This document shows positions 14,949 to 43,683 of a stretch of 43,683 nucleotides of DNA, one piece after another (the stretch's first letter is position 1; every line of letters starts with the position of its first letter). The translations under genes were made by a program, and so were the position numbers. A model generated the notes under the pieces. That model had not been told where the DNA came from and did no database searches. It worked only from the letters and a program-made list of their open reading frames with translations. The DNA is from a candidate division WOR-3 bacterium (GTDB lineage Bacteria > Hydrothermota > Hydrothermia > LBFQ01 > DSFT01): NCBI GenBank assembly GCA_965649115.1, contig CBFGJN010000010.1, positions 1 through 43,683 of the forward strand, in the 5' to 3' direction.

Positions 14949-16153
14949 TTCAAGAGATTTCCAACGAGAAGTTCATCAACTCCTATTTCATTCTTTAAAA
15001 AAAATTTTATATCTTCAATTTCACTCAATCTCTTTACAGTTGAAAAACCATCTTCATCTCTTGAAACAACGAGAATATTTTCTAAATCAATATATTTTAA
15101 AAATTCTGGATTATGAGTTGTTATTAAAATTTGCTTTTCTTTTGAGGCTTCTTTAAATAAATCAACTATCCTTGATAATAGATAAGGATGAATGTTTCTT
15201 TCTGGTTCTTCAAAAATTACAAAACTTTTATTCTGAAAATATAAAGCCACTATTACGGCTAAAACTCTGACAGTTCCATCTGATACCAGAAATGAGGGTA
15301 AGTACTTCTCATCAAATTTTTCTTTTAATTCAAAAGAAAAGTAATCAAATATGGACCTTTTAACTTTTACATCTTCTATGAAATCTAAAACATATCCAAT
15401 CAAGTTAAGTAATTTTTTCCTTTTAATTTCATTTGAAAGAATTTTTTCAAGAAAAGCAACTAGATTGGAACCATCACTTTTTAAATCTGATTCATCAAGT
15501 CTAGTGTAGGCTTGCTTCATTGTTTTCGTATCAAAATCATAAATACCAAAATTTCTATCAAAAATTTTTAAATCAAGTAATGGTAAGGAATAATCTAAAA
15601 TAAATTCAAGAACTTTCAAGGTTAACCATCGTGAATTTTTAAATTTTTTTTCTAAACTTTCGAAGGAAATTTTATCAAAGTAGGCTTCCAATTCCAAATT
15701 TCCCTCCCAGATAGGTTTTTCAATATATCTACCAGCTCTATAAATTTCTTCTATAGAAAAATTTTTAATAGTTATTGACGTTTCATTTTCATTGTTTTTT
15801 AGATTATAAGAAAATTGAATTAAACCTGGAAGCCTAACTCTAAACCTTTTAGGGATTTCATCTTCTTCATTATTAAATTCAAACTCTTCTGTTCTACTTT
15901 CCAATGATATTTCCATTTCAATACTAATCCCTTCATCACCATTAGCTTTGAAATTTTTTAAAAAATCAAATCCACCTTCTGATGATAAAGCTTTATCTAA
16001 TCCTTCACTTGCCTTTCTCAAAAATCTAAAAATACTTATAAAATTTGTTTTTCCACCTGCATTAGGGCCAATTAAGACATTTAGATTACCAAGCTCAACT
16101 TCTAAATTTTTGAAACTTTTATAATTTTCTATTTTAATTTTCTTAATCTTCAT
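14945..16153 (-). CDS. ABC-type/AAA_21 ATPase (OLD/AbiEii/RloA-like class)
   Basis: IENYKSF, Walker A GPNAGGKT, signature SDGT, Walker B FEEPE, H-loop TTHN. Confidence 0.9.
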   Translation of the reverse strand: MKIKKIKIENYKSFKNLEVELGNLNVLIGPNAGGKTNFISIFRFLRKASEGLDKALSSEGGFDFLKNFKANGDEGISIEMEISLESRTEEFEFNNEEDEIPKRFRVRLPGLIQFSYNLKNNENETSITIKNFSIEEIYRAGRYIEKPIWEGNLELEAYFDKISFESLEKKFKNSRWLTLKVLEFILDYSLPLLDLKIFDRNFGIYDFDTKTMKQAYTRLDESDLKSDGSNLVAFLEKILSNEIKRKKLLNLIGYVLDFIEDVKVKRSIFDYFSFELKEKFDEKYLPSFLVSDGTVRVLAVIVALYFQNKSFVIFEEPERNIHPYLLSRIVDLFKEASKEKQILITTHNPEFLKYIDLENILVVSRDEDGFSTVKRLSEIEDIKFFLKNEIGVDELLVGNLLK

Positions 16154-20207: not shown

Positions 20208-21713
20208 TTAATCAATTAAAACTTTTATAACTTTATTTTTAATTTTTAAGAAATAAATACCACTCTGCTCTAAGCGAATAAAATCACTAACACCTTTTTT
20301 AAACAAAGAACCATCAATTTTATAAATTGAATAATCAACAATTTTATTAAATTTAATAGTTTTGTTTAAAATTTCGTACTTAAAATTATCGCTTTCATAA
20401 ACTTCAACAGGTGTAATAGGCTTACAATTATTATCTGAAACATTCGTGGTATTATAATAAACATATAAGCGAGCTGATTGGCCGTTATAAATTCCCGCTA
20501 CAATATCAGGTTTTTTATCAGAATTAACATAACCCACATCAAGTCCATAAATTCCATAAGGACCATTATTACTTTCAATTATACGAACTTGCCAGTTATT
20601 ATTTCCAAGATTTTCAAGCCATCCAAGACCATTATTTGGAACAGGGACATCTGTATATCTTGTTGAATCATATTTAAGGCCAGAAGCCCAAACAATATCA
20701 TTATCACCATCACAATCAATATCTGCTATTTTTAATTCACAAGTTCCAAATTTAACATTAGGTAATAAAACATTAACACTCTGAAAATTCAAAGGATTTC
20801 CGCCTTGATTCATTCTTATTGAAATCAAAGCACTATCATTCCCAAATGATGTACAACTAACTATATCAGGCCTATTGTCATTATTTAAATCTCCTACTGC
20901 TACACCATGATAGTAATAATCAATTGTTAATGAATACTTGTTTGACCAACCATTACCCAAATTTAATCTATAATAAACCGAACCTTGACGAACATAATTT
21001 CCCCTTGAACAAACAAAATCAATTCTTCCATCATTATTTAAATCAGCCAATGAAAGTCCCTCATCACAAGCATAATCTAAATTTACAAGACTATCAACTC
21101 TAACAAGTGTATTTGAAACATAATTATATTTAAACAAAGAATAACCTTCATCTGTAAAGTAAATATCACTACCATAAGCGCTTATATGATTTGGAAAAGT
21201 AAATCTATTATTAGTTATAGTATAATCGCTAAAATTACCATTGCCATTATTAATTAATATATTTAGTGTTCTACTTAAAGCTGAAACGTTTGCTATATCT
21301 ATTTTACCATCATTATTGAAGTCTCCAAGTGTTAAACCATAAGGTAAATATCTTGACTGGCTACCAACAGGCACACAATTGAAATTACCAAGTGATGTTT
21401 GATAAGCTATTCTCACAACTCCAAAAGCATTATTATTACTATCAGCTGTTATAAAAACAATATCATTTAGTCCATTATTATCAATATCTCTTATAAGACC
21501 TTTATCGTTTATTAAAGTGACAAACTTATTGCCAGGAATGAATGGTGATGAACATATTTGAACTTTGTTAAATGTTGCATTTCCATAAACAATAGGAGCA
21601 AGGACAATATCTTCTATCTTTTGAATTTCAGCAACTTTTCTACTATCAATAGCTAATCTAACTATCTTATCATAAAATGGTGAGTCACCTAAGAAACCTA
21701 AAATCCAAAACAT
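20208..21713 (-). CDS. FG-GAP/VCBS repeat protein with T9SS-type CTD
   Basis: DFNNDGKIDI, DLNNDGRIDF, DIDCDGDNDI; IYKIDGSL...GIYFLK. Confidence 0.88.
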   Translation of the reverse strand: MFWILGFLGDSPFYDKIVRLAIDSRKVAEIQKIEDIVLAPIVYGNATFNKVQICSSPFIPGNKFVTLINDKGLIRDIDNNGLNDIVFITADSNNNAFGVVRIAYQTSLGNFNCVPVGSQSRYLPYGLTLGDFNNDGKIDIANVSALSRTLNILINNGNGNFSDYTITNNRFTFPNHISAYGSDIYFTDEGYSLFKYNYVSNTLVRVDSLVNLDYACDEGLSLADLNNDGRIDFVCSRGNYVRQGSVYYRLNLGNGWSNKYSLTIDYYYHGVAVGDLNNDNRPDIVSCTSFGNDSALISIRMNQGGNPLNFQSVNVLLPNVKFGTCELKIADIDCDGDNDIVWASGLKYDSTRYTDVPVPNNGLGWLENLGNNNWQVRIIESNNGPYGIYGLDVGYVNSDKKPDIVAGIYNGQSARLYVYYNTTNVSDNNCKPITPVEVYESDNFKYEILNKTIKFNKIVDYSIYKIDGSLFKKGVSDFIRLEQSGIYFLKIKNKVIKVLID

Positions 21714-21717
21714 ATTC

Positions 21718-23235
21718 TCACCTCCTTATAACAAAAGCCTTTTCAAAAACTGCTGTATTATTATATACTTTCAATAAATATGCTCCCGAAGGTAAGTTGA
21801 ACTGAGTTTTTAAGGATTTTATTGTTCCATCTAAAATTTTTACACCCTGTAAATTGTAAATATCAAATTTTGAATTTAACAGTGAGTTTGAAACTATTAA
21901 ATTTCCTTTAATATCTAATATAATTTTCAAATTTTTATTTTCAAAATTACTTACAGGTGTAACCCCACAATTACCTCCACTTATATTATAAAAAACTCTA
22001 AAAAATGCTAATTCCATTAACCCAACATTTGAAGCACTTAGTACAATATCAGGTCTATTGTCATTATTCAATAATCCTACATTTAGTCCATAATTGCTAT
22101 AATTCTTACTATCAATAATATAATTTGTCCATCCTCCACCACCAATTGTGGGATTATTTATCCAGCCTGCTGAAGGACCTGCATTAGTATAACCTTCTTT
22201 TTTACCCATTCCTCTTATCCAAACAATATCATTATCGCCATCACAATCTAAATCATATACTTTAACTTCGGACGCTTGAAGGTTAGAACCAACGGAGATA
22301 CTTGCTAATAGCGAAAATGTAGGGGGATTACCACCGTTATTTTTATAAACTAAAATAGCATCATTTTGATCATCAGTTATTACAACATCTAATTTACCAT
22401 CATTATCCATATCTGCAACAGCAACACTATGATAATAACCAGGTGTTGTAGTGATATTATATAAACCACTCCAATTAGAGCCTTGTCTAAGCTGAAAAAC
22501 AACATTTCCTGGACCTCTAAAATATCCCTTTGAACAAACAATATCCAATTTACCATCATTGTTTAAATCACCAATTGCTAATCCTTCTGCACAATAATTA
22601 TTTATTTTTGAACTTGAAACACCATTATAAAAATGAACACCTTGATTTGAACCATCACTTTTACCCTCATCTGTAAAAACAATTTCATTTGATGATAAAA
22701 CCGCAATATGATTTATATAATAAAATGTATCACTTATGGTTGAATTATATAACATTTGTTCAGAAAAGTTTTGATTACCATTATTTATAATTTCTCTTAA
22801 TTCTCCACCACCTGAAACCACATAAGCAATATCAATTTTTCCATCATTATTAAAATCATAAGAAGTAATACCATAAGGATTAGAACCATATAATGTATTT
22901 ATTTGTTTTAGGGAGAAATTAAGAGCTGAATTTTGAAAACAAATAGCAACCATTCCAAATCCAGAAACATCGTACTGATAAACACCAGCTATATCATTAT
23001 ATCCATTATTATCAAAGTCTTTAATTAAACTATTAGTAGGAGCTACCAACTTTGTCATATAAGAATATGTTGAACTTATACATACCGAGTCTTCATAGAA
23101 TGTAAGAGGACCTGCTTGGATAAATTTTGAAGAACTATCATTTTTGAGTATCTCATAAGCCTTATTTTCTATATTCTTTTGAAAAAGTGATGTTTGATAA
23201 GGTGTCCAAATTTGGCTTATTAAAAACAAAAACAT
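21718..23235 (-). CDS. FG-GAP/VCBS repeat protein with T9SS-type CTD (paralog of 20208-21713)
   Basis: DFNNDGKIDI, DMDNDGKLDV, DLDCDGDNDIVW; IYNLQGVKI...LPSGAYLLKV. Confidence 0.88.
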   Translation of the reverse strand: MFLFLISQIWTPYQTSLFQKNIENKAYEILKNDSSSKFIQAGPLTFYEDSVCISSTYSYMTKLVAPTNSLIKDFDNNGYNDIAGVYQYDVSGFGMVAICFQNSALNFSLKQINTLYGSNPYGITSYDFNNDGKIDIAYVVSGGGELREIINNGNQNFSEQMLYNSTISDTFYYINHIAVLSSNEIVFTDEGKSDGSNQGVHFYNGVSSSKINNYCAEGLAIGDLNNDGKLDIVCSKGYFRGPGNVVFQLRQGSNWSGLYNITTTPGYYHSVAVADMDNDGKLDVVITDDQNDAILVYKNNGGNPPTFSLLASISVGSNLQASEVKVYDLDCDGDNDIVWIRGMGKKEGYTNAGPSAGWINNPTIGGGGWTNYIIDSKNYSNYGLNVGLLNNDNRPDIVLSASNVGLMELAFFRVFYNISGGNCGVTPVSNFENKNLKIILDIKGNLIVSNSLLNSKFDIYNLQGVKILDGTIKSLKTQFNLPSGAYLLKVYNNTAVFEKAFVIRR

Positions 23236-23239
23236 ATTC

Positions 23240-24895
23240 TCACCCCCTTATAAGAATTTTTCTTTTTATGGTTTTGTTCTCATATTCAAGCCTTAAAATG
23301 TAAAAACCCTCTCTTAAAGACAATTCAAAATTGTTTTGATTAAACTCATTTCTATAAATAAGTGTTCCATCAATTTTATAAATAGTTAAAACTTTCAATG
23401 ATTTTATTTTTGAATTGATTTTCAAAATTTTTCCTTGATTAATAATACTAATTTCACAATCTTGGTAATTTTCAGAATCACTCAAAGGTGTTAATAAACC
23501 GCAAGCAACCTTTTTTGAAACATTAACATTTAATGAAGTGTAATTTACATTAGAAACTAAAACTGGAACATTAGTATATAAATTCCAATTATTTCCATTT
23601 GATAATGTTATACTTTGATTTACATCTGGAATAAAAGTTCTCCAATAACAAGTATCTTGAATACCACTATCTGCTGCCAAAACCCCATCCCAATTACCAT
23701 TTGAAAAATTAGTGTTATTAATCCAACCAACTGCATAAGCAATACCACCCTTTACCGTTATTCCCCTTCCCTCTCCCGTTATTGGAAGCAAATATCTAAT
23801 ACTTATCAAAGAACAATTAGATTTATTAATTTTTGCATAAAATAAATTCCCATAAACTAAACTATTGTCATAATTCAAACCACCAGTAATATAATAATAA
23901 CTTGAACCCTCTTCCACATCAATACCAAAATCATGATTAAGACTACCAAATCGCCTAGCACAAACCAAATTACCGTTTTGGTCAATTTTTAAGAAAAGAA
24001 TATCAGAATTTGAAGCACCTCCATCTATATGTTCCGCTACAATAATACTACCATCTGATGCTAATTTCGCCCATGTTAAACGATTTACACTTCTATTTCT
24101 ATTATAAACCTTTTGCCAAATTAAGTTTCCATTATTTATATTAAACTTTCCAATCCATATATTATTATTTGAAGCTCCAAAAGCAATGATATTTCCATCA
24201 CTACTTTGAAGAACACTATTAATTCCTCTATAAGCAAGAACATTATCCATCGTATCACCTACTGCTCTAATCCAAGTTAAATTTAAGTTTTGGTCAAGTT
24301 TTGCTACAAATCCTTGTGTTGTTGAAATCCAAGCATTATTATAAAACCTTTCATATTGGATTTCACCTCCAATTACAAATCCATTATCAGTTGTCCTTTT
24401 TATACTAAGAATTCTTAACCAATTATTTATAGTTGGATCTCCCCAATTATCATGAAATCTTTTTGCAGTTATAAATGAACCATCGCTGTTATTTAGCTTT
24501 ATTATAAAACCTTCATTTGTCGCACTTGGTAAATTAGTACAAAAATTATAAGAACCACCATCAGGAGTACATGAAATTCCTACAATTACGATATTGCCAT
24601 TATCATCATAATCAAATCTATAAGACCAATCATTCAAATTTGGAACACCAATGACCCGTTCCCATAAGCTTGAACCATAAGGATTTGTTTTAATAATAAT
24701 GAAATCCGAACCCGAAGAATTATCTATTTTATAACTGCCACTTGTTAAGAAGTTGAAAATAATGGAATTACCAGGTGCATAAAAATCAACCCTTTCAAGA
24801 TAATCTAAATTAGAACCTCCATAGGTCCTAAGTCCTGACCAAGCCTGAGCATTCAAAACTCCAAAGAAAAATAAAATCAGATAAAAGCTCCTCAT
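23240..24895 (-). CDS. Secreted beta-propeller protein with T9SS-type CTD
   Basis: Normal signal peptide (MRSF...LNA), TYGG/KLD..G repeats, IYKIDGTLI...GFYILRL. Confidence 0.85.
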   Translation of the reverse strand: MRSFYLILFFFGVLNAQAWSGLRTYGGSNLDYLERVDFYAPGNSIIFNFLTSGSYKIDNSSGSDFIIIKTNPYGSSLWERVIGVPNLNDWSYRFDYDDNGNIVIVGISCTPDGGSYNFCTNLPSATNEGFIIKLNNSDGSFITAKRFHDNWGDPTINNWLRILSIKRTTDNGFVIGGEIQYERFYNNAWISTTQGFVAKLDQNLNLTWIRAVGDTMDNVLAYRGINSVLQSSDGNIIAFGASNNNIWIGKFNINNGNLIWQKVYNRNRSVNRLTWAKLASDGSIIVAEHIDGGASNSDILFLKIDQNGNLVCARRFGSLNHDFGIDVEEGSSYYYITGGLNYDNSLVYGNLFYAKINKSNCSLISIRYLLPITGEGRGITVKGGIAYAVGWINNTNFSNGNWDGVLAADSGIQDTCYWRTFIPDVNQSITLSNGNNWNLYTNVPVLVSNVNYTSLNVNVSKKVACGLLTPLSDSENYQDCEISIINQGKILKINSKIKSLKVLTIYKIDGTLIYRNEFNQNNFELSLREGFYILRLEYENKTIKRKILIRG

Positions 24896-32394: not shown

Positions 32395-33265
32395 GCCTTT
32401 ATAATTATAACCATTATAATATCTTGCTCTAAAATAAAAGAAGATAATGAAGACCCTATTTTTAATGAAGCTAAAAATTTTTTTCTCCTCTTCCTGACAC
32501 TTTTCAAAGTCAAGATAATCCAATAACAAAAGAAAAAGTAGAATTAGGTAAAATGCTATTCTTTGAAAGAAGATTATCATTCAATAATATCGCCTGCTCC
32601 CAAGCAAATGGGAGCTTTAGAATTACAGCCAAGAAATGCTCCAACAGTTCTCAACTCAGCAGGACAATTTGTTCAACATTGGATAGGTAATAGAAAAGAT
32701 GTAGAAGACCAGGCATTTAAGTCTTTAACGGGAAGACCAGCATTAGGAAACCCATCAAATGAAGAAGTAGTAAATAAATTAAAGAAAATTCCAGAATATG
32801 TTGAACTTTTCAAAAAAGCTTTTCCTAATGAAAAAGACCCTTATTACTCCTTCAAGATTTGATAAATTTTTAAAAGGAGATAAAAAAGCTTTAACGGAGC
32901 AAGAAAAAAGAGGACTAAAGACATTTATTGAAGTTGGTTGTGTAGCATGTCATAATGGGGTTTTAGTTGGAGGAAATATGTATCAAAAATTTGGTATATT
33001 TGAACCTTATTGGAAATATACAAAAAGCGATAGTATAGATGAAGGAAGATATGTAGAAACCAAAAGAGATGAAGATAAATATGTATTTAAAGTTCCATCT
33101 TTAAGAAATGTAGTAATGACACCACCTTACTTTCATGATGGGTCAAAGGTTCAACTTGGAAAGGATTTAACAAAAGAACAAATAAATGATATAATAAACT
33201 TTCTTAAAACCTTAACAGGTGAAATTCTAGAGGAAGCAAAACAACCTCCTATACTACCCCCTTAA
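32395..33265 (+). pseudogene. Di-heme cytochrome c peroxidase (CcpA/MauG family), frameshifted and deleted
   Basis: Fragments in different frames: IIISC lipobox, NPITKEKVELGKMLFFE, PRNAPTVLNS, CVACHNG, FKVPSLRNV...PYFHDG. First CxxCH is lost. Confidence 0.88.
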
Positions 33266-33276
33266 AATTTTAAAAA

Positions 33277-34461
33277 TTGATTTCATTTCTTCTATCACAA
33301 ATTATATTCCCAGGTGAGGAAAAATTTTTAAGTAATATAAAGCAATTGACATTTTCAGGTGAAAATGCAGAAGCATATTTTTCAAAAGATGGAAAATATA
33401 TAACATTTCAATCAAAAGGTGAAGGTGGAATTTACTTAATAATAGATGGAAATTATCTAAATAAGCTTCAAATGAACTTAAATGAAATGAAAGCTTATGA
33501 TTATGTCCTAAAAAATTTGGGAAATAATAAACTGATGATATTTATAAAAGGTATTTATGACACATTCGGAATTTTAAAAGGCATTAAATATGAGAAAATG
33601 TTTATAAAAAACTATTATGATTGCGATCAAATTTTTCTAATGGATACAAATGGATTTGTTTTTAAACAAATTTCAAAAGGTGGAGCAAATACCTGTTCTT
33701 GGTTCTTAAATGATAGTTTAATTTTGTTTTCAAGTACAATAAAACAAGGAAAAGAATGCCCCAAAAATTTATATGCTGATGAATATATTAAGAAAGGTAT
33801 TTATGTCTGGAAATTATTTAATTATGATTTGCTTGTTTATAATTTAAAAAATGATAGCACTTATGAAATTTATTCAAGTGGTTATTATGATGCAGAAGGT
33901 GAAGGAAACTTTGGAGATAGTATTGTCTTTACATCTTCAAAAGATGGTGATTTAGAATTATATCTTTTGAGTTTAAAAGATAAAAAAATTATTAGAAGAA
34001 TTACAAATTTTTTGGGTTATGATGGTGGTGCGATGTTCTCAAAAAGTGGAAGATATATTGTTTTTAGAGCTAAACATATAAAAGATAGTTTGGAATATAA
34101 GGAATTATTAAGTAAGGGATTAGTTAAACCTGATGAAGTTGAATTATTTATTTATGATTTAAAGAAAGATAGTTTTTGGCAATTAACTTATAGTCCAAAA
34201 GGTGTTTCAAATTTTGCTCCATATTTTCATCCCTCAGAAAAATTTATTATTTTTTCTTCAAATTTACACGCTCCAAATAGCTTTAATTTTGAACTTTATA
34301 AAATAGATATTGATGGGAAAAATCTTGAAAGAATAACATATTCAAATGGTTTTAATTCATTTCCTATGTTTTCAGAAGATGGTAAAAAAATTATTTGGAC
34401 ATCTAATAGAAACGGTAAAAGTAGAAGAGATTTTAATATATTTATAGCAGATTTTAAATGA
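33277..34461 (+). CDS. TolB-like PD40 beta-propeller protein
   Basis: QLTFSGENAEAYFS.DGK, GYDGGAMFS, NFAPYFHP, FPMFSEDGKKIIWTSNR. Confidence 0.88.
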   Translation: MISFLLSQIIFPGEEKFLSNIKQLTFSGENAEAYFSKDGKYITFQSKGEGGIYLIIDGNYLNKLQMNLNEMKAYDYVLKNLGNNKLMIFIKGIYDTFGILKGIKYEKMFIKNYYDCDQIFLMDTNGFVFKQISKGGANTCSWFLNDSLILFSSTIKQGKECPKNLYADEYIKKGIYVWKLFNYDLLVYNLKNDSTYEIYSSGYYDAEGEGNFGDSIVFTSSKDGDLELYLLSLKDKKIIRRITNFLGYDGGAMFSKSGRYIVFRAKHIKDSLEYKELLSKGLVKPDEVELFIYDLKKDSFWQLTYSPKGVSNFAPYFHPSEKFIIFSSNLHAPNSFNFELYKIDIDGKNLERITYSNGFNSFPMFSEDGKKIIWTSNRNGKSRRDFNIFIADFK

Positions 34462-34566
34462 ATGCTTATTTTAAAAGCTCAATTTTTGTGGTGTGCTCAA
34501 AAATTTTAAAATTATTTATTTTTCTCACCTACTAAGCAAAAATTGTTGATTTTTTTGAAATATTGA

Positions 34567-34755
34567 TTAAATAAATGCTCCAAAATTACAAAATGGGCAC
34601 ATAGCTAACCTCCTTTTCATAACGCAATCATAACAAGCAGGTGCTCCACAATAACTACAAGTCCTAATACAAGAATTACAAAATCCTCTTCTACAAAACG
34701 AACATTGAACATAAACTGGATTTATTCTACATCTAAAACAACGTGCAACAAACAT
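34567..34755 (-). CDS. Small Cys-rich zinc-finger protein (six CxxC pairs)
   Basis: 62 aa, 12 Cys; SD AAAAGGAGG directly after the dynamin-WD40 stop. Confidence 0.8.
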   Translation of the reverse strand: MFVARCFRCRINPVYVQCSFCRRGFCNSCIRTCSYCGAPACYDCVMKRRLAMCPFCNFGAFI

Positions 34756-34769
34756 AACCTAACCTCCTT

Positions 34770-37025
34770 TTATATAAACTTTTCTATTATGAACTTTGAA
34801 AGCTCATCGTTCATCTTATAAACTCCTGAAATCAGCTCATTAAGGAAATTATCAATTTCTTGATTTTTGGTTATTGAATTTATTTGTTTTATATAATTTT
34901 CTTCAATCTCCCTACATACATCTTTCCAACCACTTGTTATAATTGAAGGCAAATTGGATGAAATTTCGTTATAAACTTTGTTTCTTATTTCATTGGCCTT
35001 TTTGTTAGCATAAATAAAAAGCAATATTAATAAAATTGAAGAAACGACTATGCCATAAATAGGCTTCGCAAAAATATACTTTACAAGTATTCCTAATACA
35101 ATAGAACCAATTATTCCCAACAAAACTTGGATAAATAGATTAGGGTAATTAGTATCTAATCTATAATCAAATTTCAGATTTGGTTTTTTTTGTTTAAAAT
35201 TTGAATCTAAATCAAAAATTTTAATAATTGAGATATTATTTATCAACATCTTAGCTTTAATAATCATCTCTTTATGAAAAAATTCGCTTATCCCATCAAT
35301 GTCGGCAGAAATTTTATTATTTAGCTTCTCATTTAGGTTACTTATCAACTTCTTAATAACACTTTCTCCTTTTGTAATAATATCAAAATTTGAAATTTTA
35401 TGAAGACCCTTTTTTAAGTTTTCCAAGTAAAAATTTATATAATCTTTATCCCATTTCCTAACCTTAGTCATATTCTCTTCAAAGACTTCAATAAGTTCAT
35501 CTCTTATTATATTTAAATTGGTTTTGAAAGTAGAAACATAAGAAGCAATTATGATAACATTTCGTAAGAACTTAACCAATTTTTCATCATTCTTAAACTT
35601 CTTGGCAGATGCCGGAATATAACCTAAAATTCTGTTCTTTGGATAAATTTGTTCAACCTTTTGCTTTATATAATCTATACGTTCTTGAATTTGATTTTTT
35701 TCTTCACCTTCAAATAAATCTATTTTATTTAATATAAAAAGAATGTAAATTTCCTCACGCTTTGCTCTCTCCTTTACAATCTCTAAAAATTCAGCATCAA
35801 ATTTACTTAAACCTTTTGATACGCCAAGCATCCAAATAATAATGTTATAGTTATTCTTTTTAAGGTAATCACTTAACTCATTATTTATGCTACCATCATA
35901 ACCAGGAAAGTCAGATATTCTAACAAATTTTAAAAATTCTTGCGTTTCAGAATTAAACTCATTTAGATCCCATATCTTAACAGTTTCAGCACTTCCACTT
36001 GCCAAGAACTTTCCATCAGGACTAAATGAAACTGAATTAACACTATCAGAATGTCCTTTTAATGTTTCCATCTCTTTCCAACTCTCAACTTCCCATATCT
36101 TGATTGTTTTATCACGACTTCCACTTGCCAAAAACTTTCCATCAGGACTAAATGAAACTGAATAAACACTATCAGAATGTCCTTTTAATGTTTTTATTTC
36201 TTTCCAAGTTCCAACTTCCCATATTTTGATTGTTTTATCACTACTTCCACTTGCCAAGAACTTTCCATCAGGACTAAATGAAACTGAATAAACACTACCA
36301 GAATGTCCTGTTAATGTTGTTATTTCTTTCCAACTTCCAACTTCCCATATCTTAATTGTTCTATCCCAACTTCCACTTGCTAAATACTTACCATCAGGAC
36401 TGAAAGAAATTGAAAAAACACTATTAGAATGTCCTTTTAATGTTTTTGTTTCTTTCCAAGTTCCAACCTCCCATATCTTGATTGTTTTATCATAACTTCC
36501 ACTTGCTAAAAACTTACCATCAGGACTAAACGAAACTGAAAGAACACTATTAGAATGTCCTGTTAATGTCTTAATTAGCTTCCAACTCTCAACTTCCCAT
36601 ATCTTGATCGTTCCATCCTCACTTCCACTTGCTAAATACTTACCATTAGGACTAAATGAAACTGACACGACATAATCAGAATGTACTTCTAATGTTTTAA
36701 TTAATTTCCAACCTCCAACTTCCCATATCTTGATTGTTTCATCCTCACTTCCACTTGCCAAGAACTTTCCATCAGGACTAAATGAAACTGAATAAACACT
36801 ATCAGAATGTCCTGTTAATGTTGTTATTTCTTTCCAACTTCCAACTTCCCATATCTTTGAGTCACGACTTTCATTGATACCAAGCAAAAGGTTTAGAAAT
36901 GAAGATTTACCAATAAACTTTACACCAAAAGTACACATTTCAGGTCTATTTACAAAGTATTTCTTTCTTTCTTTTATTCTTCTAACCTTGTCTTCAATTT
37001 TCCATAGAATTTCATCTATCATCAC
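34770..37025 (-). CDS. Dynamin-like GTPase with inserted 7-repeat WD40 propeller and two TM helices
   Basis: G1 GVKFIGKSS, WD40 x7, G3 DFPG, G4 NKID, G5 SAK, helical stalk, hydrophobic hairpin. Confidence 0.85.
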   Translation of the reverse strand: MMIDEILWKIEDKVRRIKERKKYFVNRPEMCTFGVKFIGKSSFLNLLLGINESRDSKIWEVGSWKEITTLTGHSDSVYSVSFSPDGKFLASGSEDETIKIWEVGGWKLIKTLEVHSDYVVSVSFSPNGKYLASGSEDGTIKIWEVESWKLIKTLTGHSNSVLSVSFSPDGKFLASGSYDKTIKIWEVGTWKETKTLKGHSNSVFSISFSPDGKYLASGSWDRTIKIWEVGSWKEITTLTGHSGSVYSVSFSPDGKFLASGSSDKTIKIWEVGTWKEIKTLKGHSDSVYSVSFSPDGKFLASGSRDKTIKIWEVESWKEMETLKGHSDSVNSVSFSPDGKFLASGSAETVKIWDLNEFNSETQEFLKFVRISDFPGYDGSINNELSDYLKKNNYNIIIWMLGVSKGLSKFDAEFLEIVKERAKREEIYILFILNKIDLFEGEEKNQIQERIDYIKQKVEQIYPKNRILGYIPASAKKFKNDEKLVKFLRNVIIIASYVSTFKTNLNIIRDELIEVFEENMTKVRKWDKDYINFYLENLKKGLHKISNFDIITKGESVIKKLISNLNEKLNNKISADIDGISEFFHKEMIIKAKMLINNISIIKIFDLDSNFKQKKPNLKFDYRLDTNYPNLFIQVLLGIIGSIVLGILVKYIFAKPIYGIVVSSILLILLFIYANKKANEIRNKVYNEISSNLPSIITSGWKDVCREIEENYIKQINSITKNQEIDNFLNELISGVYKMNDELSKFIIEKFI

Positions 37026-37939
37026 TAACCTCCTTTTTATTATATAAAATTATCTATAATGAATTTTGAAAATTTATCATTCATCTTATAAGCACCTAAA
37101 ATCAGTTCATTAAGGAAGTTTTGGATACTTTTGTTATTGGTTAGCAAGTTTACTTTGTCCTTATAAGTTTCTTCTATTTCTTCACACACATCCTTCCAAC
37201 CACTTTCTATAATACTTGGTAATTTGGTTGAAACTTCATTATAAACTTTGTTTCTTATTTCATTGGCTTTATTATCTGAATCAATAATCGTCCAAATTAA
37301 TGAACCTAAGAAAACAAGCGTTCCAATACCAGGAATAAGTGCTCCCAAAGCAAGTCTTGCAAATATACCAGCACCAATTGAAGTCATAATTTTTCCTAAA
37401 ACTTCACCAAAAAGTTCATTAGAATAACTAGCTTGTTGAACATTGAAATCGGAAAAATCCAAACCTGAAATTCTCTGACTAAAATCATAATTTAAATTCA
37501 AATTTAAAATTTCAATATAGGAAATTGACATACCATTTATTAGCTTTTTAGCTTCATTAATTTCTTTACTTAGAAACTCAGCTATTTTCTCTATATCAGC
37601 ATTTATTTCACTTTCCAATCGCGAATTTAAATCTTCTATTAGTTGTTTAATAACACTTTCTCCTTTTGTAATAATATCAAAATTTGAAATTTTATGAAGA
37701 CCCTTTTTTAAGTTTTCCAAGTAAAAATTTATATAATCTTTATCCCATTTCCTAGCCTTAGTCATATTCTCTTCAAAGACTTCAATAAGTTCATCTCTTA
37801 TTATATTTAAATTGGTTTTGAAGGTAGAAACATAAGAAGCAATTATGATAACATTTCGTAAGAACTTAACCAATTTTTCATCATTCTTAAACTTCTTGGC
37901 AGATGCCGGAACATAACCTAAAATTTTGTTCTTTGGATA
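35353..37939. repeat. Near-identical direct repeat 35353-35645 / 37647-37939
   Basis: Constant offset 2294; encodes the shared G5-stalk segment LGY(I/V)PASAKK...KGESVIK. Confidence 0.95.
35969..36857 (-). repeat. Intragenic tandem array of seven 126-bp WD40 units (last one 123 bp)
   Basis: CCCATAT anchor at 36848, 36722, 36596, 36470, 36344, 36218, 36092 and 35969. Confidence 0.97.
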
Positions 37940-40510
37940 TATTTTTTCAATATCTTGTCTTACTTTATTTATTAGTTCCTCAAAACTTTTCCTATCTTCC
38001 CCTTCATAAATATCTATTTTATTTAAAATAAATAGAACATAGGGTTCTCTTCCTTTTATAATTTCCAAGAAATCACGATTTGTTTTCAATACGCCTTTTG
38101 ATATATCAAGTATATATAGAACAATATCGTAGTCTCCCTCTTTAAGGTAATTTTCAACCTCTTTATCCAAGCTCCCACTATAGCCAGGAATATCTACAAT
38201 ATTTAGAAATGCTAAAAAATCAGAACTCTCATCTTTAAAAGCATAATTTTCCAATTTATTATTTTGCATATTATAAACTTTTACATTTCTGGTTAGTTCT
38301 ATTGTTAGAATTTTATTTTTATAACTTAAAATTTTTCTTGGAAGAATAACCTCAAATTCATCAAGTTTTTCAAAATTTTCATCATAAATTAGAACTTTTT
38401 TATTAAGTGCGATAACAAGAAATCCATTATCAAAATTTAAGCAATTGACTTCTTCATTAAATTTGAATTCGTGAATTTTAGTTTGCTTAGAAATGTTGTA
38501 AATTTCAACAAAATTTTTAAAGCCAATAGCTAAATATTTTCCATTTCTGCTAAACGAAATATCTTCAATATAATTATTATCAGCTTCTCTAATTTCCATA
38601 ATTTCAGGTTTTTCTGATTTATGTTCAAAAATAGGAGTATAATCAATTATAATTACATTACCTTGATTTGTTCCAAGAGCAATTTTGTGATAATAGGATG
38701 AAATTTTGGAAAAGTATAAGGAATCTTCGCCTTCAAAATTTACTATTACTTTTAACTCTTTTATATCTAAGACTTTATATGAGCCATCAACAAAAATAGC
38801 ATAAATAAAATAACCATCAGTTGTTAAATCATGAACAGGAAATTCAAATTCTTTTTCAAGAACAAGTTTAAACTCACCATCCCAAATTTTGATTTTTTTA
38901 TCGTCGCTAGCAGTTACAAGAAGTTCGTCAGCCCAAGCCATACCCCATATAGAAAAATCATGAGCTTTAAAATAATTAAAAATAGAGAAGTCTTTCAAAC
39001 TTATATTATAAATTTTACCTTCATTTGTTCCAATAGTTAAAATATTTTTGTTTTTGTTTATTGCACAAATTTTAAATCCATCTAAAATTTTTTTAATTTT
39101 AAATTCCTTTTCTTCTAACTCGTACTTTGCTAGGACACCATCAAAACTCTTGATTTTTGTGATATTTTTAGTAGTTTCTCCTATTGAAGATTGGAATACA
39201 TTTTTACCCAATAATAAATTCAAGAATGAAGACTTACCAGCTGACATTTCACCAACAGCACATACTGTTGGTTTCCTTATAAAGTAATCTTTTCTTTGTT
39301 CTATTTTACTTATTTTTTCTTCAAGATCTTCAAGAAATATATCAATTTTATTAACCTTCAGTATTTTCATTATCTGTTCAATAGCTCTTATTTGATTTTC
39401 AATCTTTCCTTGAGCATCAGTTGATGATTTCTTATCTAACTCTTCATAAAGTACCTCGCTAGTAATAAATACTACTTTTTGAATATCTCGCTTAATTTTC
39501 TCAAACGAAGAAACTTTAGAAGATAGAAATTCTTTTTGTTTATAATTTATAACATCATTCCAAAATACCCTCTCAAAGTCCTCAAACAATTTCTTGTATC
39601 TTTTTGTTCTTTCATCTATCTCTTCTCCTTTTGCCTGCTTAATAAAACCTTGAAGCGCTAATTTGGCTGAAATGTAAAATAATTGTTCTACATCAATTTT
39701 TTGACTATATCCCTGCTCACTTAAAATATCATTCATCTTATTTATAACACCTTTACCAATTAGGTCAAAATTAGATTCTTCTTCTTCTTCATAAGCATCT
39801 ATCTTATTAAAAACAATATACCTCTTGTCAGGTCTTATCATTGACAATAACCTTGAAAGCTTTTCAATTTCATCTATTGTAATTCCTTGACTTATGTCAA
39901 GTATCGTTATAACAGCATCGCTTAAATTTATAGCACTTTGTATAAATTTCTTCATTAATTCTTCATTCAATGTTCCAAAACCAGGTGTGTCAATTACCTC
40001 TATTCCAGCCTTCAAATTTTCCAAAGGCATATAAATAAATACACTTAATTCATCCTCTGAAATGTTTAAAACCTTTCCCCCTTCCTTACTTTGCTCTGCT
40101 TTTGCTAATGTTTCCTCATTTAATTGCCTTATAAATTCCTTTATCTCCTCTAAATTATTAAATTTCTTTTCTGAATTCTTATATTTTACAGCATAATTTT
40201 CACCATAAGAAATATGATAAAGTCTTGCCGTCGTCTCACCTACTCTTGCTTCAAGAATCCTATCCTTAAATATAAGGGCATTTAGGAATGAAGATTTACC
40301 ATTTGAAACTTCTGCTATTACCGAAACCCTCACTTTATCGTCTATTAAAGACTTTATAACCCCCTCTAATTTTTGTATAGATTCGTCAAAATTTAAAGGT
40401 AAATTCACTGAATTTGAAATCTCTTGACATCTTTTTAAATCACTTATATAACTCTTTATACTTTCTATTATTCTAAACTTCTCTTTGTTATAACTATCTA
40501 AATCAAACAT
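37040..40510 (-). CDS. Double dynamin-like GTPase fusion; second GTPase domain contains a divergent WD40 propeller
   Basis: Domain 1: AEVSNGKSS, ETT, DTPG, NKID, SAK. Domain 2: GEMSAGKSS, ETT, [AHDFSIWGMAW...TASDDKKIKIWD...], DIPG, NKID, SAK. Confidence 0.88.
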   Translation of the reverse strand: MFDLDSYNKEKFRIIESIKSYISDLKRCQEISNSVNLPLNFDESIQKLEGVIKSLIDDKVRVSVIAEVSNGKSSFLNALIFKDRILEARVGETTARLYHISYGENYAVKYKNSEKKFNNLEEIKEFIRQLNEETLAKAEQSKEGGKVLNISEDELSVFIYMPLENLKAGIEVIDTPGFGTLNEELMKKFIQSAINLSDAVITILDISQGITIDEIEKLSRLLSMIRPDKRYIVFNKIDAYEEEEESNFDLIGKGVINKMNDILSEQGYSQKIDVEQLFYISAKLALQGFIKQAKGEEIDERTKRYKKLFEDFERVFWNDVINYKQKEFLSSKVSSFEKIKRDIQKVVFITSEVLYEELDKKSSTDAQGKIENQIRAIEQIMKILKVNKIDIFLEDLEEKISKIEQRKDYFIRKPTVCAVGEMSAGKSSFLNLLLGKNVFQSSIGETTKNITKIKSFDGVLAKYELEEKEFKIKKILDGFKICAINKNKNILTIGTNEGKIYNISLKDFSIFNYFKAHDFSIWGMAWADELLVTASDDKKIKIWDGEFKLVLEKEFEFPVHDLTTDGYFIYAIFVDGSYKVLDIKELKVIVNFEGEDSLYFSKISSYYHKIALGTNQGNVIIIDYTPIFEHKSEKPEIMEIREADNNYIEDISFSRNGKYLAIGFKNFVEIYNISKQTKIHEFKFNEEVNCLNFDNGFLVIALNKKVLIYDENFEKLDEFEVILPRKILSYKNKILTIELTRNVKVYNMQNNKLENYAFKDESSDFLAFLNIVDIPGYSGSLDKEVENYLKEGDYDIVLYILDISKGVLKTNRDFLEIIKGREPYVLFILNKIDIYEGEDRKSFEELINKVRQDIEKIYPKNKILGYVPASAKKFKNDEKLVKFLRNVIIIASYVSTFKTNLNIIRDELIEVFEENMTKARKWDKDYINFYLENLKKGLHKISNFDIITKGESVIKQLIEDLNSRLESEINADIEKIAEFLSKEINEAKKLINGMSISYIEILNLNLNYDFSQRISGLDFSDFNVQQASYSNELFGEVLGKIMTSIGAGIFARLALGALIPGIGTLVFLGSLIWTIIDSDNKANEIRNKVYNEVSTKLPSIIESGWKDVCEEIEETYKDKVNLLTNNKSIQNFLNELILGAYKMNDKFSKFIIDNFI

Positions 40511-40522
40511 ATTCGCCTCCTT

Positions 40523-42082
40523 TTAAATAACCTTACTTTCAAGCATATTTCTTATGTTATTTACAGCACTTTCTATGGCTTTTATTTTGTTTTCGTAAAA
40601 CTTTATTTCATTTTCAATTTCTTCCTTATCCTTTCCAATAAATTCAATACTTTTTTCAACTGAAACTATTTCACTATCCAAATTGGCATATTCTTTAAGT
40701 TTCAACTCCTCAAAATAATAGTTTTTAGAACTTTCTATGGAATAAATAACATTATCTTTAAGTCTATTAAAAATCTTGTTTATATCAGCCTCAATACTGC
40801 CTGTCGCTATTGTTCTTATGAAATTTTGAATAATATCGGTTAAATCAGGTAAATTCAACTCCCTCAATACTGGATCAAATATCTTACCAAGGAAATCTAT
40901 TGATGAAATAATGAACGAAGTAAAGAATGAAGTTGATTCTATTTCAGAAAGTTCTGAAAGATCAAATTCAAGCTCTGACTTATTTATAGCTTCTTTTATG
41001 CTCAATATGAGTAATTGAATTTCATTTCTTAAATTTACAGATAGGTAGGTTTTTAGGTTATCTGGATCTATGCTTTTCACAGTCGTAATAACTTCCATTC
41101 TTTTATTATCAATAAGTGGAATAACTTGGTTTTTTATAATATCTGCAATTTTAGCATCTACTCTTTTTCTTAAATCATTTAGTACATTATCAAGTTCAGA
41201 TTTTTTTGTTTTTAGTTCGGCTAATTTTGCTTTAAGCTCTTCTCTTGTTTTTTGTTTATTTTCAATTAATGAATTTAGCTGTTTTTTTGTAATTTCTTCA
41301 ATTGTTTTCATAATTGAACTTATTCTTGTCTTTATGATTTGAGATTTACTAGTCGCTGAGAGATAATTAAATAACTGATTTTTGAAGTCCAAAAAACCTT
41401 GATCTTTTTCTTTTGCTGAAAATACAAAAACGGCAAAATCTTCCAAATTCTTCTTTATCTTTTGAATTTCATAATCATCAATTTCATCGCTAACTAAATC
41501 AAGTTTATTAAAAACAATAAAAATTTTATCTCTTAAAAATTTAATAATATAATTGTCAAAAAATTCTTTATCTTTTTTCGTTAAGCCTTTGGTAATATCC
41601 AAAACAAATATGACAGCATCAGCAGTAGGAACTCTTGAAAGTGTTAAATTTTCTAAATTTTCTTGTAATTCATCAATTCCAGGTGTATCTACAAAAACCA
41701 CACTTGAAAATGGAAACTCTTTAAGATAAACATTAACAGCTTTTAAATTAGGTTTTTCATTTATAATTTCAAAATTCCTTTCATCAAGTTGATAAATCTC
41801 AGAACTTCCATCTTTATAAATTGCTTCAATTTTATCTTCATCTGACTTTATAACAGTGTTTATTGATTTCGTAACTGTTCCAATTCCCGTAGGCATAATA
41901 TCTTTACCAAGAAGAGCATTCATTATTGTAGTTTTACCCGTTGATAATTTACCTACAAAAACAACCTCTATTTTATCCCTTTTTACAACATCAATAGCAA
42001 CATCACAAAGCTTTTCAAGATATTCGTTCTCCAAAAACGATATATTACTTTTTATAAGTTCAAGTTCCCTTTCCATATTCAA
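40523..42082 (-). CDS. Bacterial dynamin-like protein
   Basis: GKLSTGKTT, VT, DTPG, NKLD, SAK, long coiled coils. Confidence 0.92.
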   Translation of the reverse strand: MNMERELELIKSNISFLENEYLEKLCDVAIDVVKRDKIEVVFVGKLSTGKTTIMNALLGKDIMPTGIGTVTKSINTVIKSDEDKIEAIYKDGSSEIYQLDERNFEIINEKPNLKAVNVYLKEFPFSSVVFVDTPGIDELQENLENLTLSRVPTADAVIFVLDITKGLTKKDKEFFDNYIIKFLRDKIFIVFNKLDLVSDEIDDYEIQKIKKNLEDFAVFVFSAKEKDQGFLDFKNQLFNYLSATSKSQIIKTRISSIMKTIEEITKKQLNSLIENKQKTREELKAKLAELKTKKSELDNVLNDLRKRVDAKIADIIKNQVIPLIDNKRMEVITTVKSIDPDNLKTYLSVNLRNEIQLLILSIKEAINKSELEFDLSELSEIESTSFFTSFIISSIDFLGKIFDPVLRELNLPDLTDIIQNFIRTIATGSIEADINKIFNRLKDNVIYSIESSKNYYFEELKLKEYANLDSEIVSVEKSIEFIGKDKEEIENEIKFYENKIKAIESAVNNIRNMLESKVI

Positions 42083-43683
42083 ACCTCCTCTCTAAGTTTT
42101 GTCTCTAAGAGTTCTGATATGCTTTTTATAGCATTTAATTGGGTTTCAATCTCTTTTATTCTTTCATCTAAATCACCTTTTTCAAGCATTTTAATTATTT
42201 CAGAGCTAATAAACTTAACCTCGTTAAATTTAATTCTAATATTATCTATGAAATCCGTTAAAATATCATTTAATTTATTAATATCTTCCCTTAAATCATA
42301 AAGACTAGTATAGACTCCTTCAATGATTCTTTGTTTTAATTCTTGTTTTTTCTTCTCTACATTTGCCAACAAATCAAAAATTGTCCAAACTAAACCAGCT
42401 AAAATGCCTATTGGACCAGCAATTGCACCAGCAATTGCCTCACTCCCAGCCCAAATAGCAGCATTAGTTCCTATAAATTCTAAAGCAATTGCTCTCACTA
42501 ACATTCCCACAGTAAATCCAGCCATAACTCCGCTTAAAAGAGAACCAAAAATATCACCACTCACAACCTCAATCTGACTTGCAATGTGCTTTTCCTCAAT
42601 TTTCTTTTGCTGATAATCTATCTTAGGAAATCTAAATCTTTCTATATTCATTTTTTCAAGTTCAGAATTAAATTCATCAACACTTTTATTGTAATCTTCA
42701 ACGTACTTTCTAATATTTGAAAAAATAGGTCCATAATAATTTTGAAAAACATCATCCAAAATTTTTCCAATATCTATTTCAGATAATCGTTGATTTATTT
42801 CTTGCTGTATCTCATCCGCGGAAAACAAAGAAGAAAAAACATTATAATTTTCTTCAACATAGCTAATAACTGCTGACTCTTGCAAAATTTTTTCTCCAAC
42901 TTTTTGAATAATTTCATCGGTGTTTAATTTAATACCTTTTAAATTTTCTATATAACCACTGGCTTTTTGTTGAAGAGACTGAGCCATTGTATTAATTTTA
43001 TTTTGTTCTCTTAATATAGATTCTTTTTCAGATTTTAACGATAATAATTGATTACTTAAATTTTTATAAATACTATTGACTTCTTTATTTATAAATTCCT
43101 TTGTTCTTTCAAACGAAGAAACTTTAGAAGATAGAAATTCTTTTTGTTTATAATTTATAACATCATTCCAAAATACCCTCTCAAAGTCCTCAAACAATTT
43201 CTTGTATCTTTTTGTTCTTTCATCTATCTCTTCTCCTTTTGCCTGCTTAATAAAACCTTGAAGCGCTAATTTGGCTGAAATGTAAAATAATTGTTTTACA
43301 TCAATTTTTTGACTATATCCCTGCTCACTTAAAATATCATTCATCTTATTTATAACACCTTTACCAATTAGGTCAAAATTGGATTCTTCTTCTTCATAAG
43401 CATCTATCTTATTAAAAACAATGTACCTCTTGTCAGGTCTTATCATTGACAATAACCTTGAAAATTTTTCACTTTCACCCTTCTTAATTCCTTGACTTAT
43501 GTCAAGTATCGTTATAACAGCATCACTTAAATTTATAGCACTTTGTATAAATTTCATCATTAATTCTTCATTCAATGTTCCAAAACCAGGTGTGTCAATT
43601 ACCTCTATTCCAGCCTTCAAATTTTCCAAAGGCATATAAATAAATACACTTAATTCATCCTCTGAAATGTTTAAAACCTTTCC
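42079..43683 (-). CDS. Bacterial dynamin-like protein, 5' end outside the window
   Basis: Frame is open past 43635 to the edge (GKVLNISEDELSVFIY); DTPG, NKID, SAK; Gly/Ala-rich membrane paddle. Confidence 0.92.
   Translation of the reverse strand, partial: GKVLNISEDELSVFIYMPLENLKAGIEVIDTPGFGTLNEELMMKFIQSAINLSDAVITILDISQGIKKGESEKFSRLLSMIRPDKRYIVFNKIDAYEEEESNFDLIGKGVINKMNDILSEQGYSQKIDVKQLFYISAKLALQGFIKQAKGEEIDERTKRYKKLFEDFERVFWNDVINYKQKEFLSSKVSSFERTKEFINKEVNSIYKNLSNQLLSLKSEKESILREQNKINTMAQSLQQKASGYIENLKGIKLNTDEIIQKVGEKILQESAVISYVEENYNVFSSLFSADEIQQEINQRLSEIDIGKILDDVFQNYYGPIFSNIRKYVEDYNKSVDEFNSELEKMNIERFRFPKIDYQQKKIEEKHIASQIEVVSGDIFGSLLSGVMAGFTVGMLVRAIALEFIGTNAAIWAGSEAIAGAIAGPIGILAGLVWTIFDLLANVEKKKQELKQRIIEGVYTSLYDLREDINKLNDILTDFIDNIRIKFNEVKFISSEIIKMLEKGDLDERIKEIETQLNAIKSISELLETKLREEV

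Follow-up and report, generated by a model that had tools for sequence, protein, structure and literature searches.

The stretch of DNA analysed here (hereafter the window) is the 43,683-nt contig CBFGJN010000010.1 of a candidate division WOR-3 bacterium (assembly GCA_965649115.1), and it carries a gene for a dynamin-like GTPase, gene D, whose G domain holds an array of seven highly similar WD40 units in place of the switch-I region. The top face of the propeller that these units are predicted to form is likely to be under diversifying selection, at positions equivalent to those that diversify in the HET-E protein of Podospora anserina. Diversifying, highly repetitive (HR) WD40 arrays are known as a phenomenon; a host of this kind, the G domain of a bacterial dynamin-like protein, was not found in the open-access literature searched. 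All feature positions below follow the numbering of the whole window, and both the array and its host gene lie on the minus strand.

The WD40 array and its dynamin-like host

The original prediction, made from the sequence alone, had described seven WD40 repeats of 42 aa. Tandem Repeats Finder, the translation and the Pfam matches agree that this array is real. Tandem Repeats Finder reported a single strong array at 35991-36857 (period 126, 6.9 copies, 86% matches, 0% indels, score 1223) in a window of low GC content (0.21-0.33 per kb). Read in frame on the minus strand, the array consists of seven 42-aa (126-nt) units that make up residues 56-349 of the open reading frame (ORF) 34770..37025 and occupy window positions 35979-36860, and the Pfam family WD40 (PF00400) matches gene D in seven stretches with an E value of 1.9e-105 (341.3 bits; cutoff 27). 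The unit register used here begins at (S/I)KIWEV, and the columns are numbered 1-42. The DHSW tetrad (H18, S36, D40 and W4) is present in the units, with E at the D40 position of unit 7; the same unit is short by one codon near its end (ASGSAETVKIWD versus ASGSxDxTIKIWE). The units, as delimited by Tandem Repeats Finder, Pfam and translation, are as follows.

36735-36860, minus strand: WD40 unit 1 of gene D
36609-36734, minus strand: WD40 unit 2
36483-36608, minus strand: WD40 unit 3
36357-36482, minus strand: WD40 unit 4
36231-36356, minus strand: WD40 unit 5
36105-36230, minus strand: WD40 unit 6
35979-36104, minus strand: WD40 unit 7

An AlphaFold model of gene D, based on a 13-sequence alignment, has a mean predicted local distance difference test score (pLDDT) of 83.2, with values above 90 in the propeller and low values at residues 53-61 and 620-662. 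In the model, the propeller comprises residues ~64-354, and its 28 strands form seven blades, the last of which is completed by the first strand d. Foldseek aligned the modelled propeller to the seven-bladed WD40 structures 7big and 5yzv with template modelling (TM) scores of 0.97-0.98, and to WDR5 at 36-37% identity. The model thus predicts, with very high confidence, that the array folds as a closed seven-bladed WD40 propeller, and the position of this propeller within its host, described below, carries the same very high confidence.

The host appears to be a membrane-anchored protein, and the insertion point lies in its G domain, after the P-loop helix and before the G3 strand; the propeller takes the place of the G2/switch-I segment there. 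The features of the host protein are listed here.

34770..37025, minus strand: gene D, a dynamin-like GTPase of 751 aa, recognized from the ORF, its paralogy to gene C (see below) and homologues with Dynamin_N
36903..36926, minus strand: G1/P-loop GVKFIGKS, residues 34-41 (alignment A1)
36861..36884, minus strand: junction LGINESRD, residues 48-55 (alignment A1; pLDDT low at residues 53-61)
35901..35912, minus strand: G3 motif DFPG, residues 372-375 (D372, P374 and G375 invariant in alignment A2)
35718..35729, minus strand: G4 motif NKID, residues 433-436 (N433, K434 and D436 invariant in alignment A2)
35007..35138, minus strand: hydrophobic hairpin, a putative membrane paddle, residues 630-673 (alignment A1; overlaps the low-confidence residues 620-662)

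The G2/switch-I motif, which reads xxFxSxIGETTK in the other 6/7 aligned members, is missing only in gene D (alignment A1), whose array starts directly after LLLG-INESRD with a leftover strand-c fragment, SKIWEV. In gene C and in a homologue described below (P0006), the insert sits between GETTK of G2 and the DxPG strand in the same alignment. Downstream of G4, the model and the sequence of gene D have long helices and the hydrophobic hairpin, and the gene is preceded by AGGAGG 5 nt upstream of its GTG-ATG start. Gene D and its homologue P0003 appear, from the models, to share the G domain, helical stalk and hydrophobic paddle of bacterial dynamin-like proteins such as BDLP (2j68), the DLP1/2 pair (5oxf) and LeoA (4aur). 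Unlike these proteins, gene D keeps G1, G3 and G4 without G2, and its G domain is atypical and probably poorly catalytic.

The likeness to fungal HET-E/NWD proteins would suggest a host of the NWD or NLR type. This proved not to be the case: the flanks of the array align to a dynamin-like G domain, no NACHT, NB-ARC or other STAND domain is among the best 25 of the 61 Pfam matches of gene D (E values down to ~5e-32), and no NACHT/STAND domain is among its PADLOC or NCBIfam matches. Dynamin_N is likewise not among the best 25 of the 61 Pfam families. The sole PADLOC match of gene D, HEAT-ARM_XIII (3.6e-27; residues 74-228 against profile positions 126-278 of 1972), arises through the WD40 repeats only. 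A promoter and terminator scan of 34300-37200 was uninformative: it gave 18 promoter-like sites, where 15.7 were expected, and no terminators.

Diversification of the propeller top face

At the DNA level, the units share pairwise identities of 0.76-0.94 (mean 0.84 over 21 pairs) with a synonymous divergence of ~0.3; the earlier description of them as nearly identical in DNA was overstated, although the repeats are indeed highly similar. The mean pairwise identity of the protein units is 0.78 for all seven and 0.79 for units 1-6. Units 1, 5 and 6 form a younger group with 90-94% DNA identity. Unit 6 is a mosaic of two other units, being closest to unit 4 over nt 1-51 (3 differences) and to unit 5 over nt 52-126 (3 differences, versus 11 from unit 4), which fits exchange between units.

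The residues that had been read out after HS (DSVY, DYVV, NSVL, NSVF, GSVY, DSVY and DSVN in units 1-7) and after ASGS (EDE, EDG, YDK, WDR, SDK, RDK and AE) are exact for all seven units. The most variable columns are 39 (six residue types), 41 (five) and 23 (five), followed by 8, 12, 13, 16 and 20 with three types each. Wu et al. 2012 (PMC3419727) locate WD40 hotspots by the fingerprint (V/L/I)-R1-R2-(V/L/I) and by the residue D-1 that precedes the tetrad Asp; by that rule column 21 corresponds to R1-2, column 23 to R1 and column 39 to D-1, and column 41 is D+1. When DSSP was applied to the model, columns 17-21 fell in the d-a loop, column 23 was the second residue of strand a and columns 39-40 fell in the b-c turn, in 7/7 units each. 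In the model, columns 21, 23, 39 and 41 thus sit in elements of the top face (d-a loop, start of strand a and b-c turn). A second class of varying columns lies in the c-d loop (7 and 8) and in the outer strand d (11-13 and 16).

Variation had been predicted to focus on fixed positions, and it is indeed concentrated there, but it is not confined to them. Among units 1-6, columns 20, 21, 23, 39 and 41 contain 88.2 of the 183.0 nonsynonymous differences, a share reached by only 2 of 100000 random five-column sets, and the remaining nonsynonymous differences fall mostly in columns 1, 7, 8, 11-13 and 16. The ratio of nonsynonymous to synonymous divergence (dN/dS) was calculated from Nei-Gojobori counts summed over unit pairs, a counting method applied to seven units rather than a site model; values are given with and without unit 7, since this unit has a register problem. 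Over whole units, dN/dS is 0.45 (seven units). The set of columns 21, 23 and 39 was fixed beforehand from the rule of PMC3419727 and gave a dN/dS of 2.9 versus 0.34 in the rest (seven units) or 2.79 versus 0.31 (units 1-6); its nonsynonymous differences were equalled by only 81 of 100000 random three-column sets. A per-codon comparison of this kind had been proposed as a check of the original prediction. For the four columns equivalent to those of HET-E (21, 23, 39 and 41), the ratio exceeds 1 and lies far above that of the rest, at 2.79 versus 0.30 (seven units), 3.83 versus 0.27 (units 1-6) and 2.07 versus 0.49 in the young trio of units 1, 5 and 6. The contrast is also visible in a single recent pair: between units 1 and 5, 4 of the 12 nt in codons 21, 23, 39 and 41 have changed, compared with 4 of 114 nt elsewhere (Fisher p = 0.0028). 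Within nt 52-126 of this pair, all 5 differences lie in codons 20, 21, 23, 39 and 41, with 0 of 60 nt otherwise.

Taken together, these results make it likely that the top face of the propeller is under diversifying selection. Some features of the data speak against this conclusion. About half of the nonsynonymous differences fall off the top face, the enrichment is weaker in unit pairs 5-6 (Fisher p = 0.56) and 1-6 (p = 0.016), and the numbers behind the selection estimates are small (19-40 synonymous sites and a sum of 4.8-10.2 synonymous differences, from non-independent pairs). Alternatively, the top face could be the least constrained part of the propeller and vary by drift, so that dN/dS values above 1 would be the noise of few synonymous sites. 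The small counts fit such relaxed constraint, as does the variation of the outer-rim and c-d loop columns, and the same pattern is general for 305 HR WD40 proteins according to Hu et al. 2017 (PMC5587647). However, neutrality does not predict a four-column dN of 0.80-0.87, which is about threefold higher than a dS of 0.21-0.31; the enrichment of the predefined columns over random column sets is significant; and the independent array of P0006 varies at the same columns. We therefore regard drift as quite an unlikely explanation.

The equivalence with HET-E that had been proposed holds at the level of individual positions. According to Paoletti et al. 2007 (PMC1805685), codons 7, 9, 25 and 27 of the HET-E repeats are positively selected and flank the purified codons 8 and 26. 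Columns 21, 23, 39 and 41 of gene D lie on either side of the invariant V22 and D40, and the two pairs are likewise 18 codons apart; they match the codons of the HET-E/HET-D/NWD proteins. The gene D array also resembles HET-E in having dN/dS above 1 at four codons and signs of exchange between units. Unlike HET-E, whose repeats are up to 100% identical in DNA (PMC1805685), the gene D repeats are 76-94% identical, and gene D has no NACHT or HET domain among the best 25 of its 61 Pfam matches. The array also differs from those of HET-E/NWD in that no exchange of units with the paralogous propeller of gene C was seen, and in that a bacterium has no repeat-induced point mutation. Repeat-number polymorphism, unlike in HET-E, was not seen in one strain comparison that was itself uninformative; the 47%-identical P0006 has six units.

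A broader class to which the array belongs is that of the HR WD40 proteins, defined by an internal identity of at least 0.7 and counted by Hu et al. 2017 (PMC5587647) as 305 proteins, mostly from prokaryotes and fungi, with diverse hotspots. Gene D falls in this class with a unit identity of 0.78, a simple mean that may differ from the procedure of Hu et al., and it shares with the class a conserved scaffold and diversity at R1-2, R1 and D-1. Solved examples of HR WD40 are the Nostoc structure 2ymu and T. curvata PkwA (5yzv), to the latter of which the modelled gene D propeller has a TM score of 0.97. The known HR arrays are terminal domains of STAND NTPases, kinases and caspases, whereas the gene D array lies inside a G domain of the dynamin type. 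No bacterial dynamin-like protein with a propeller in its G domain was found among the papers listed from the open-access literature searched, and the words "dynamin" and "GTPase" are absent from the HR WD40 survey (PMC5587647).

Relatives of gene D and the four-gene cluster

A word-indexed protein search with residues 360-751 of gene D found seven proteins among 8000 scored candidates. One, P0001 (645 aa, partial), comes from a candidate division WOR-3 metagenome-assembled genome and is 99% identical. Four others (P0003, P0004, P0005 and P0007; 471-493 aa) are without WD40, P0004 being annotated as a "dynamin family protein" of Sulfurihydrogenibium subterraneum; P0006 (735 aa) has WD40, and the remaining match is gene C of the window. 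The homologues P0003-P0007 carry Dynamin_N. P0003 is 58% identical to the C-terminal part of gene D and matches Dynamin_N at 47.5 bits (cutoff 27). Its model has a predicted TM score (pTM) of 0.78, and Foldseek matched it over its whole length to BDLP 2j68 (E 1.5e-10), IniA, Drp1, MxA, OPA1, LeoA 4aur (rank 17, E 2.3e-7) and the DLP pair of Campylobacter (5oxf); the TM scores of these matches are only 0.2-0.3, as expected of hinged proteins, at E values of 1e-10 to 2e-7.

Of the 645 residues of P0001, 643 agree with gene D; the two that do not are both encoded in a gene conversion tract described below, and units 2-7 are free of differences. A rapidly reprogrammable binding surface, as originally proposed, is not shown by this comparison, the sole close copy being identical in units 2-7; P0001 is partial, stands alone and is too close to gene D to inform on reprogramming. 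It does bear on the possibility that a short-read metagenome assembly collapsed or shuffled the repeats, so that the number and order of the units would not be real. In favour of such an artefact, the window is a whole contig of 43683 nt that ends within a 96% duplicate, the contig of P0001 breaks within the array, and P0006 is from a contig of 2327 nt. Nevertheless, the independent assembly of P0001 gives the same order and sequence of units 2-7, no two units share an exact run of more than 55 nt, the reading frame is uninterrupted and the seven blades close in the model with pLDDT above 90, which makes an assembly artefact extremely unlikely.

The insert appears to be modular. P0006, which outside the insert shares 47% identity with gene D, has six units at the same site (six Pfam stretches), in which the columns with at least three residue types are only 20, 21, 23, 33, 39 and 41. 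An alignment of P0005 with P0006 has 457 identities in 480 residues, and a 251-aa insert of six units occurs in P0006 only (junctions KER|D and WKR|D). This near-identity despite the insert indicates that the whole propeller was gained or lost recently in that lineage. Between gene D and P0006, the mean identity of the units is 76%, compared with 79-80% within each array, and these two arrays alone have in common the c-d loop motif WEVxSWK, the cyanobacterial units reading LWDVTTGKE. A specific recent common source of the two arrays was considered and is weakened by an unrelated Planktothrix protein that is as close (69% versus 70%); the similarity of the two arrays mostly represents the near-consensus nature of such repeats.

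When the propeller region itself was searched, 7990 of 8000 scored candidates were significant, with 42-69% identity among the 120 matches listed, and the best matches were cyanobacterial nSTAND1/NACHT/NB-ARC-, caspase- and kinase-WD40 proteins. The subfamily of gene D is, by comparison, tiny: a family profile run against 1.84 billion representatives found five clusters at E <=1e-30 and 89 at E <=1e-10, the rest being generic dynamin-family proteins. The best ESM Atlas clusters for gene D were weak (0.78-0.80) and belonged to dynamin or MMR_HSR1 families, WD40 being absent from the common Pfam families of the nine clusters listed. The single locus confirmed in a scan of genome contigs with profile A1 (422 stretches) is an Era GTPase (MMR_HSR1 and KH_2) adjoining a ribonucleotide reductase and is not a relative. 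A tblastn search with P0003 gave no match among plasmids and phages.

Gene D is the last of four genes, A-B-C-D, that are arranged head to tail on the minus strand, with overlaps or gaps of 12-14 nt between neighbours. Together these genes code for five dynamin-like modules.

42079..43683, minus strand: gene A, dynamin-like and LeoBC-like, with its 5' end beyond the window (PADLOC LeoBC 1.1e-15)
40523..42082, minus strand: gene B, dynamin-like and LeoA-like, 519 aa (Dynamin_N 1.3e-22; PADLOC LeoA 1.2e-15)
37040..40510, minus strand: gene C, double dynamin-like, 1156 aa (Dynamin_N 7e-35 in two stretches; weak WD40; PADLOC LeoBC 1.6e-9)
35352..35651, minus strand: gene conversion tract of ~300 nt in gene D, corresponding to 37646-37945 of gene C (from identities in 60-nt windows)

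Residues 1-349 of gene C are similar to the gene A G domain and residues 389-1156 are paralogous to gene D (42% identity); gene C looks like a fusion of a gene-A-type G domain with a gene-D-type protein. A 96% match to 39465-40078 in gene C (nt 433-1046 of that gene) covers the first 618 visible nt of gene A (43066-43683), from which it follows that the window ends within a duplication. Genes C and D have also exchanged sequence. The tract 35352-35651 is 93-100% identical to gene C per 60-nt window (98-100% in four of the five windows) against a background of 48-82%, which indicates recent gene conversion between the two paralogues.

Gene C contains a propeller of its own at residues ~455-765 (38216-39148), at the same G-domain site as the insert of gene D. 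Its weak WD40 matches bear out the earlier observation that a second, diverged propeller exists in the upstream gene. A search of 3753 candidates in the length range covered gave seven matches, the only relative being the propeller itself and the next match a generic WD40 protein at 25% identity. No exchange was seen between the gene D array and the gene C propeller. It had been suggested that the two propellers differ in age or origin. This is reasonable; however, because both inserts occupy the same G-domain site, a single old insertion, with the array of one copy renewed later, is just as likely as two origins.

The paralogy of genes C and D within the same cluster raises the question of whether gene D is a degenerating duplicate, one that redundantly repeats the second half of gene C, has lost switch I and carries a functionless array. 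The loss of G2 and the changes at invariant family positions and in the hairpin consensus would agree with decay. Against it stand the intact frame of 751 codons with a strong ribosome-binding site, a scaffold dN/dS of 0.27-0.30, the retention of G1, G3 and G4 together with a confident model, and the protein's identity at 643 of 645 residues in a second assembly (P0001). Degeneration is consequently very unlikely.

Possible functions of the propeller and other features of the window

How could a variable propeller act from within a G domain? The uniformity of the scaffold is probably kept by recent duplication, exchange between units and purifying selection. The top-face positions R1-2, R1, D-1 and D+1 have diverged faster than synonymous sites. 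The seven blades together may present one composite binding face for a protein or peptide ligand; its residues, in units 1-7, are Y, V, L, F, Y, Y and N at R1 and E, E, Y, W, S, R and A at D-1, and aromatic or hydrophobic residues appear from the sequence to make up much of the face. In the dynamin family, G domains dimerise across the nucleotide-binding pocket, the site of switch I. Located at the switch-I site and hence at the G-domain dimer interface, the propeller could, upon binding its ligand, control how gene D pairs with its partners A, B and C, whose G domains are complete, and in this manner the assembly of these dynamins on a membrane. On balance, we favour the interpretation that the propeller serves as a ligand-gated specificity module of a membrane dynamin machine.

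A functional analogy for the coupling of a propeller to a dynamin is offered by yeast Mdv1/Caf4, where the WD40 domain of Mdv1 binds the dynamin Dnm1 in trans and a D-1 residue is essential for binding (PMC3419727); these proteins act in trans, are eukaryotic and are not highly repetitive, and no homology is implied. The analogy equally suits a different explanation, in which the propeller of gene D is an endogenous adaptor that binds a fixed cellular partner, for example a dynamin of the cluster. Nothing would then be reprogrammed, and the differences between blades would be seven parts of one conserved site, kept by selection while exchange homogenises the scaffold. Blade-specific top-face residues occur in every WD40 propeller, the array is unchanged in the only close strain copy (P0001), and the five dynamin-like modules of the cluster must assemble, all of which would accord with an adaptor. 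However, the differences between units 1 and 5 over nt 52-126 (0 of 60 nt outside the hotspot codons versus 5 within them) are more readily accounted for by rapid change following duplication; conversion would have needed many short tracts that avoid interspersed codons. In addition, P0006 has other residues at the same columns and one blade fewer, and the close relatives P0003 and P0005 are without a propeller, so the propeller is not a fixed part of the assembly. We consider an endogenous adaptor rather unlikely.

Beyond the favoured role as a ligand-gated specificity module, it is conceivable, if doubtful, that the ligand is foreign (e.g. from a phage) and that the system functions in defence. 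According to two preprints (10.1101/2022.05.11.491447 and 10.1101/2022.12.12.520048), a two-gene Leo-homologous dynamin system, later called Eleos, protects B. subtilis against jumbo phages, and both P-loops are needed. The cluster in the window resembles DynA, which has two modules, and Eleos in that it likewise has tandem and fused gene pairs and PADLOC matches to LeoA and LeoBC. These matches are at ~56 bits for both LeoBC (gene A) and LeoA (gene B), within a range of 35-56 bits for the cluster and with no cutoff given. A bolder and unlikely possibility is that gene D belongs to a dynamin-based immune receptor outside the STAND class, in which an NLR-style HR WD40 sensor has taken over the switch-I site of a membrane-remodelling GTPase within an Eleos-like cluster. 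Once a phage protein was recognised, this would directly permit the partners to pair their G domains and act on the membrane. The sensor would in that case be a mobile module that comes and goes, as between P0005 and P0006, and is renewed by exchange between units.

Several observations weigh against assigning these roles to the propeller. Gene D departs from the family at otherwise invariant sites (ILDxSKG is changed to MLGVSKG), and its hairpin deviates from the family consensus ARLALGALIPGIGT (alignment A1); on these sequence grounds it could be a decaying copy. The part after the propeller is below every Pfam cutoff, the best match being GTP_EFTU at 18.5 bits versus 26.5, and the full-length model of gene D has a pTM of 0.54, so that its domain arrangement is uncertain. 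The sole close strain copy, P0001, has identical units 2-7. The link to Eleos (LeoA and LeoBC) is weak and a lead only; the NCBIfam model LeoA/HP0731 scores 20.9 bits against gene B, with a cutoff of 325. Finally, the cluster is flanked by housekeeping-like genes (PD40/TolB-like, PorV-like and a Na/Ca exchanger), and the sole strong PADLOC match elsewhere in the window lies ~19 kb from it.

Variable HR WD40 arrays are known as the sensors of fungal and bacterial NLR-like (STAND) proteins. That such an array, diversifying at the same four positions, also occurs within the catalytic domain of a dynamin-like GTPase suggests a sensor cassette that can be coupled to a quite different motor. The mechanism and the trigger of Eleos/Leo are described as unknown in 10.1101/2022.05.11.491447, and a built-in specificity domain would make the trigger directly testable. 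If the immune-receptor interpretation were true, it would provide a first handle on how dynamin-type defence systems sense infection, and the pair P0005/P0006 constitutes a natural experiment on the contribution of the propeller. If the propeller binds only a cellular partner, it would still be an unusual insertion in a very rare subfamily, of modest interest.

Elsewhere in the window, no tRNA genes were found. The ORF at 14945-16153 encodes a 402-aa AAA_21/AAA_15 ATPase with strong PADLOC matches to HEC-01A (2.3e-49) and also to AriA, PtuA and GajA-like profiles; it is a candidate defence ATPase ~19 kb from the cluster. Between this gene and a PEBP-family gene lies a non-coding region of tandem repeats (13697-14254), which has a C-rich start and consists of a 189-nt repeat (2 copies, 76%) and a 55-nt repeat (2 copies, 83%). 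A 213-aa protein with a phosphoribosyltransferase domain (8584-9225) has a weak match to PADLOC ShosT/PRTase (8.2e-11) and is probably a housekeeping enzyme. Three consecutive ORFs of ~500-550 aa at 20208-24895, two of which are paralogous and have FG-GAP repeats while the third is without a Pfam match, adjoin an 852-aa ORF without a match. The 155-aa ORF at 32798-33265 contains a CxxCH motif (CVACH) and has no Pfam match at 1e-5; we take it to resemble the C-terminal half of a di-haem cytochrome c peroxidase, and it may be a truncated gene.

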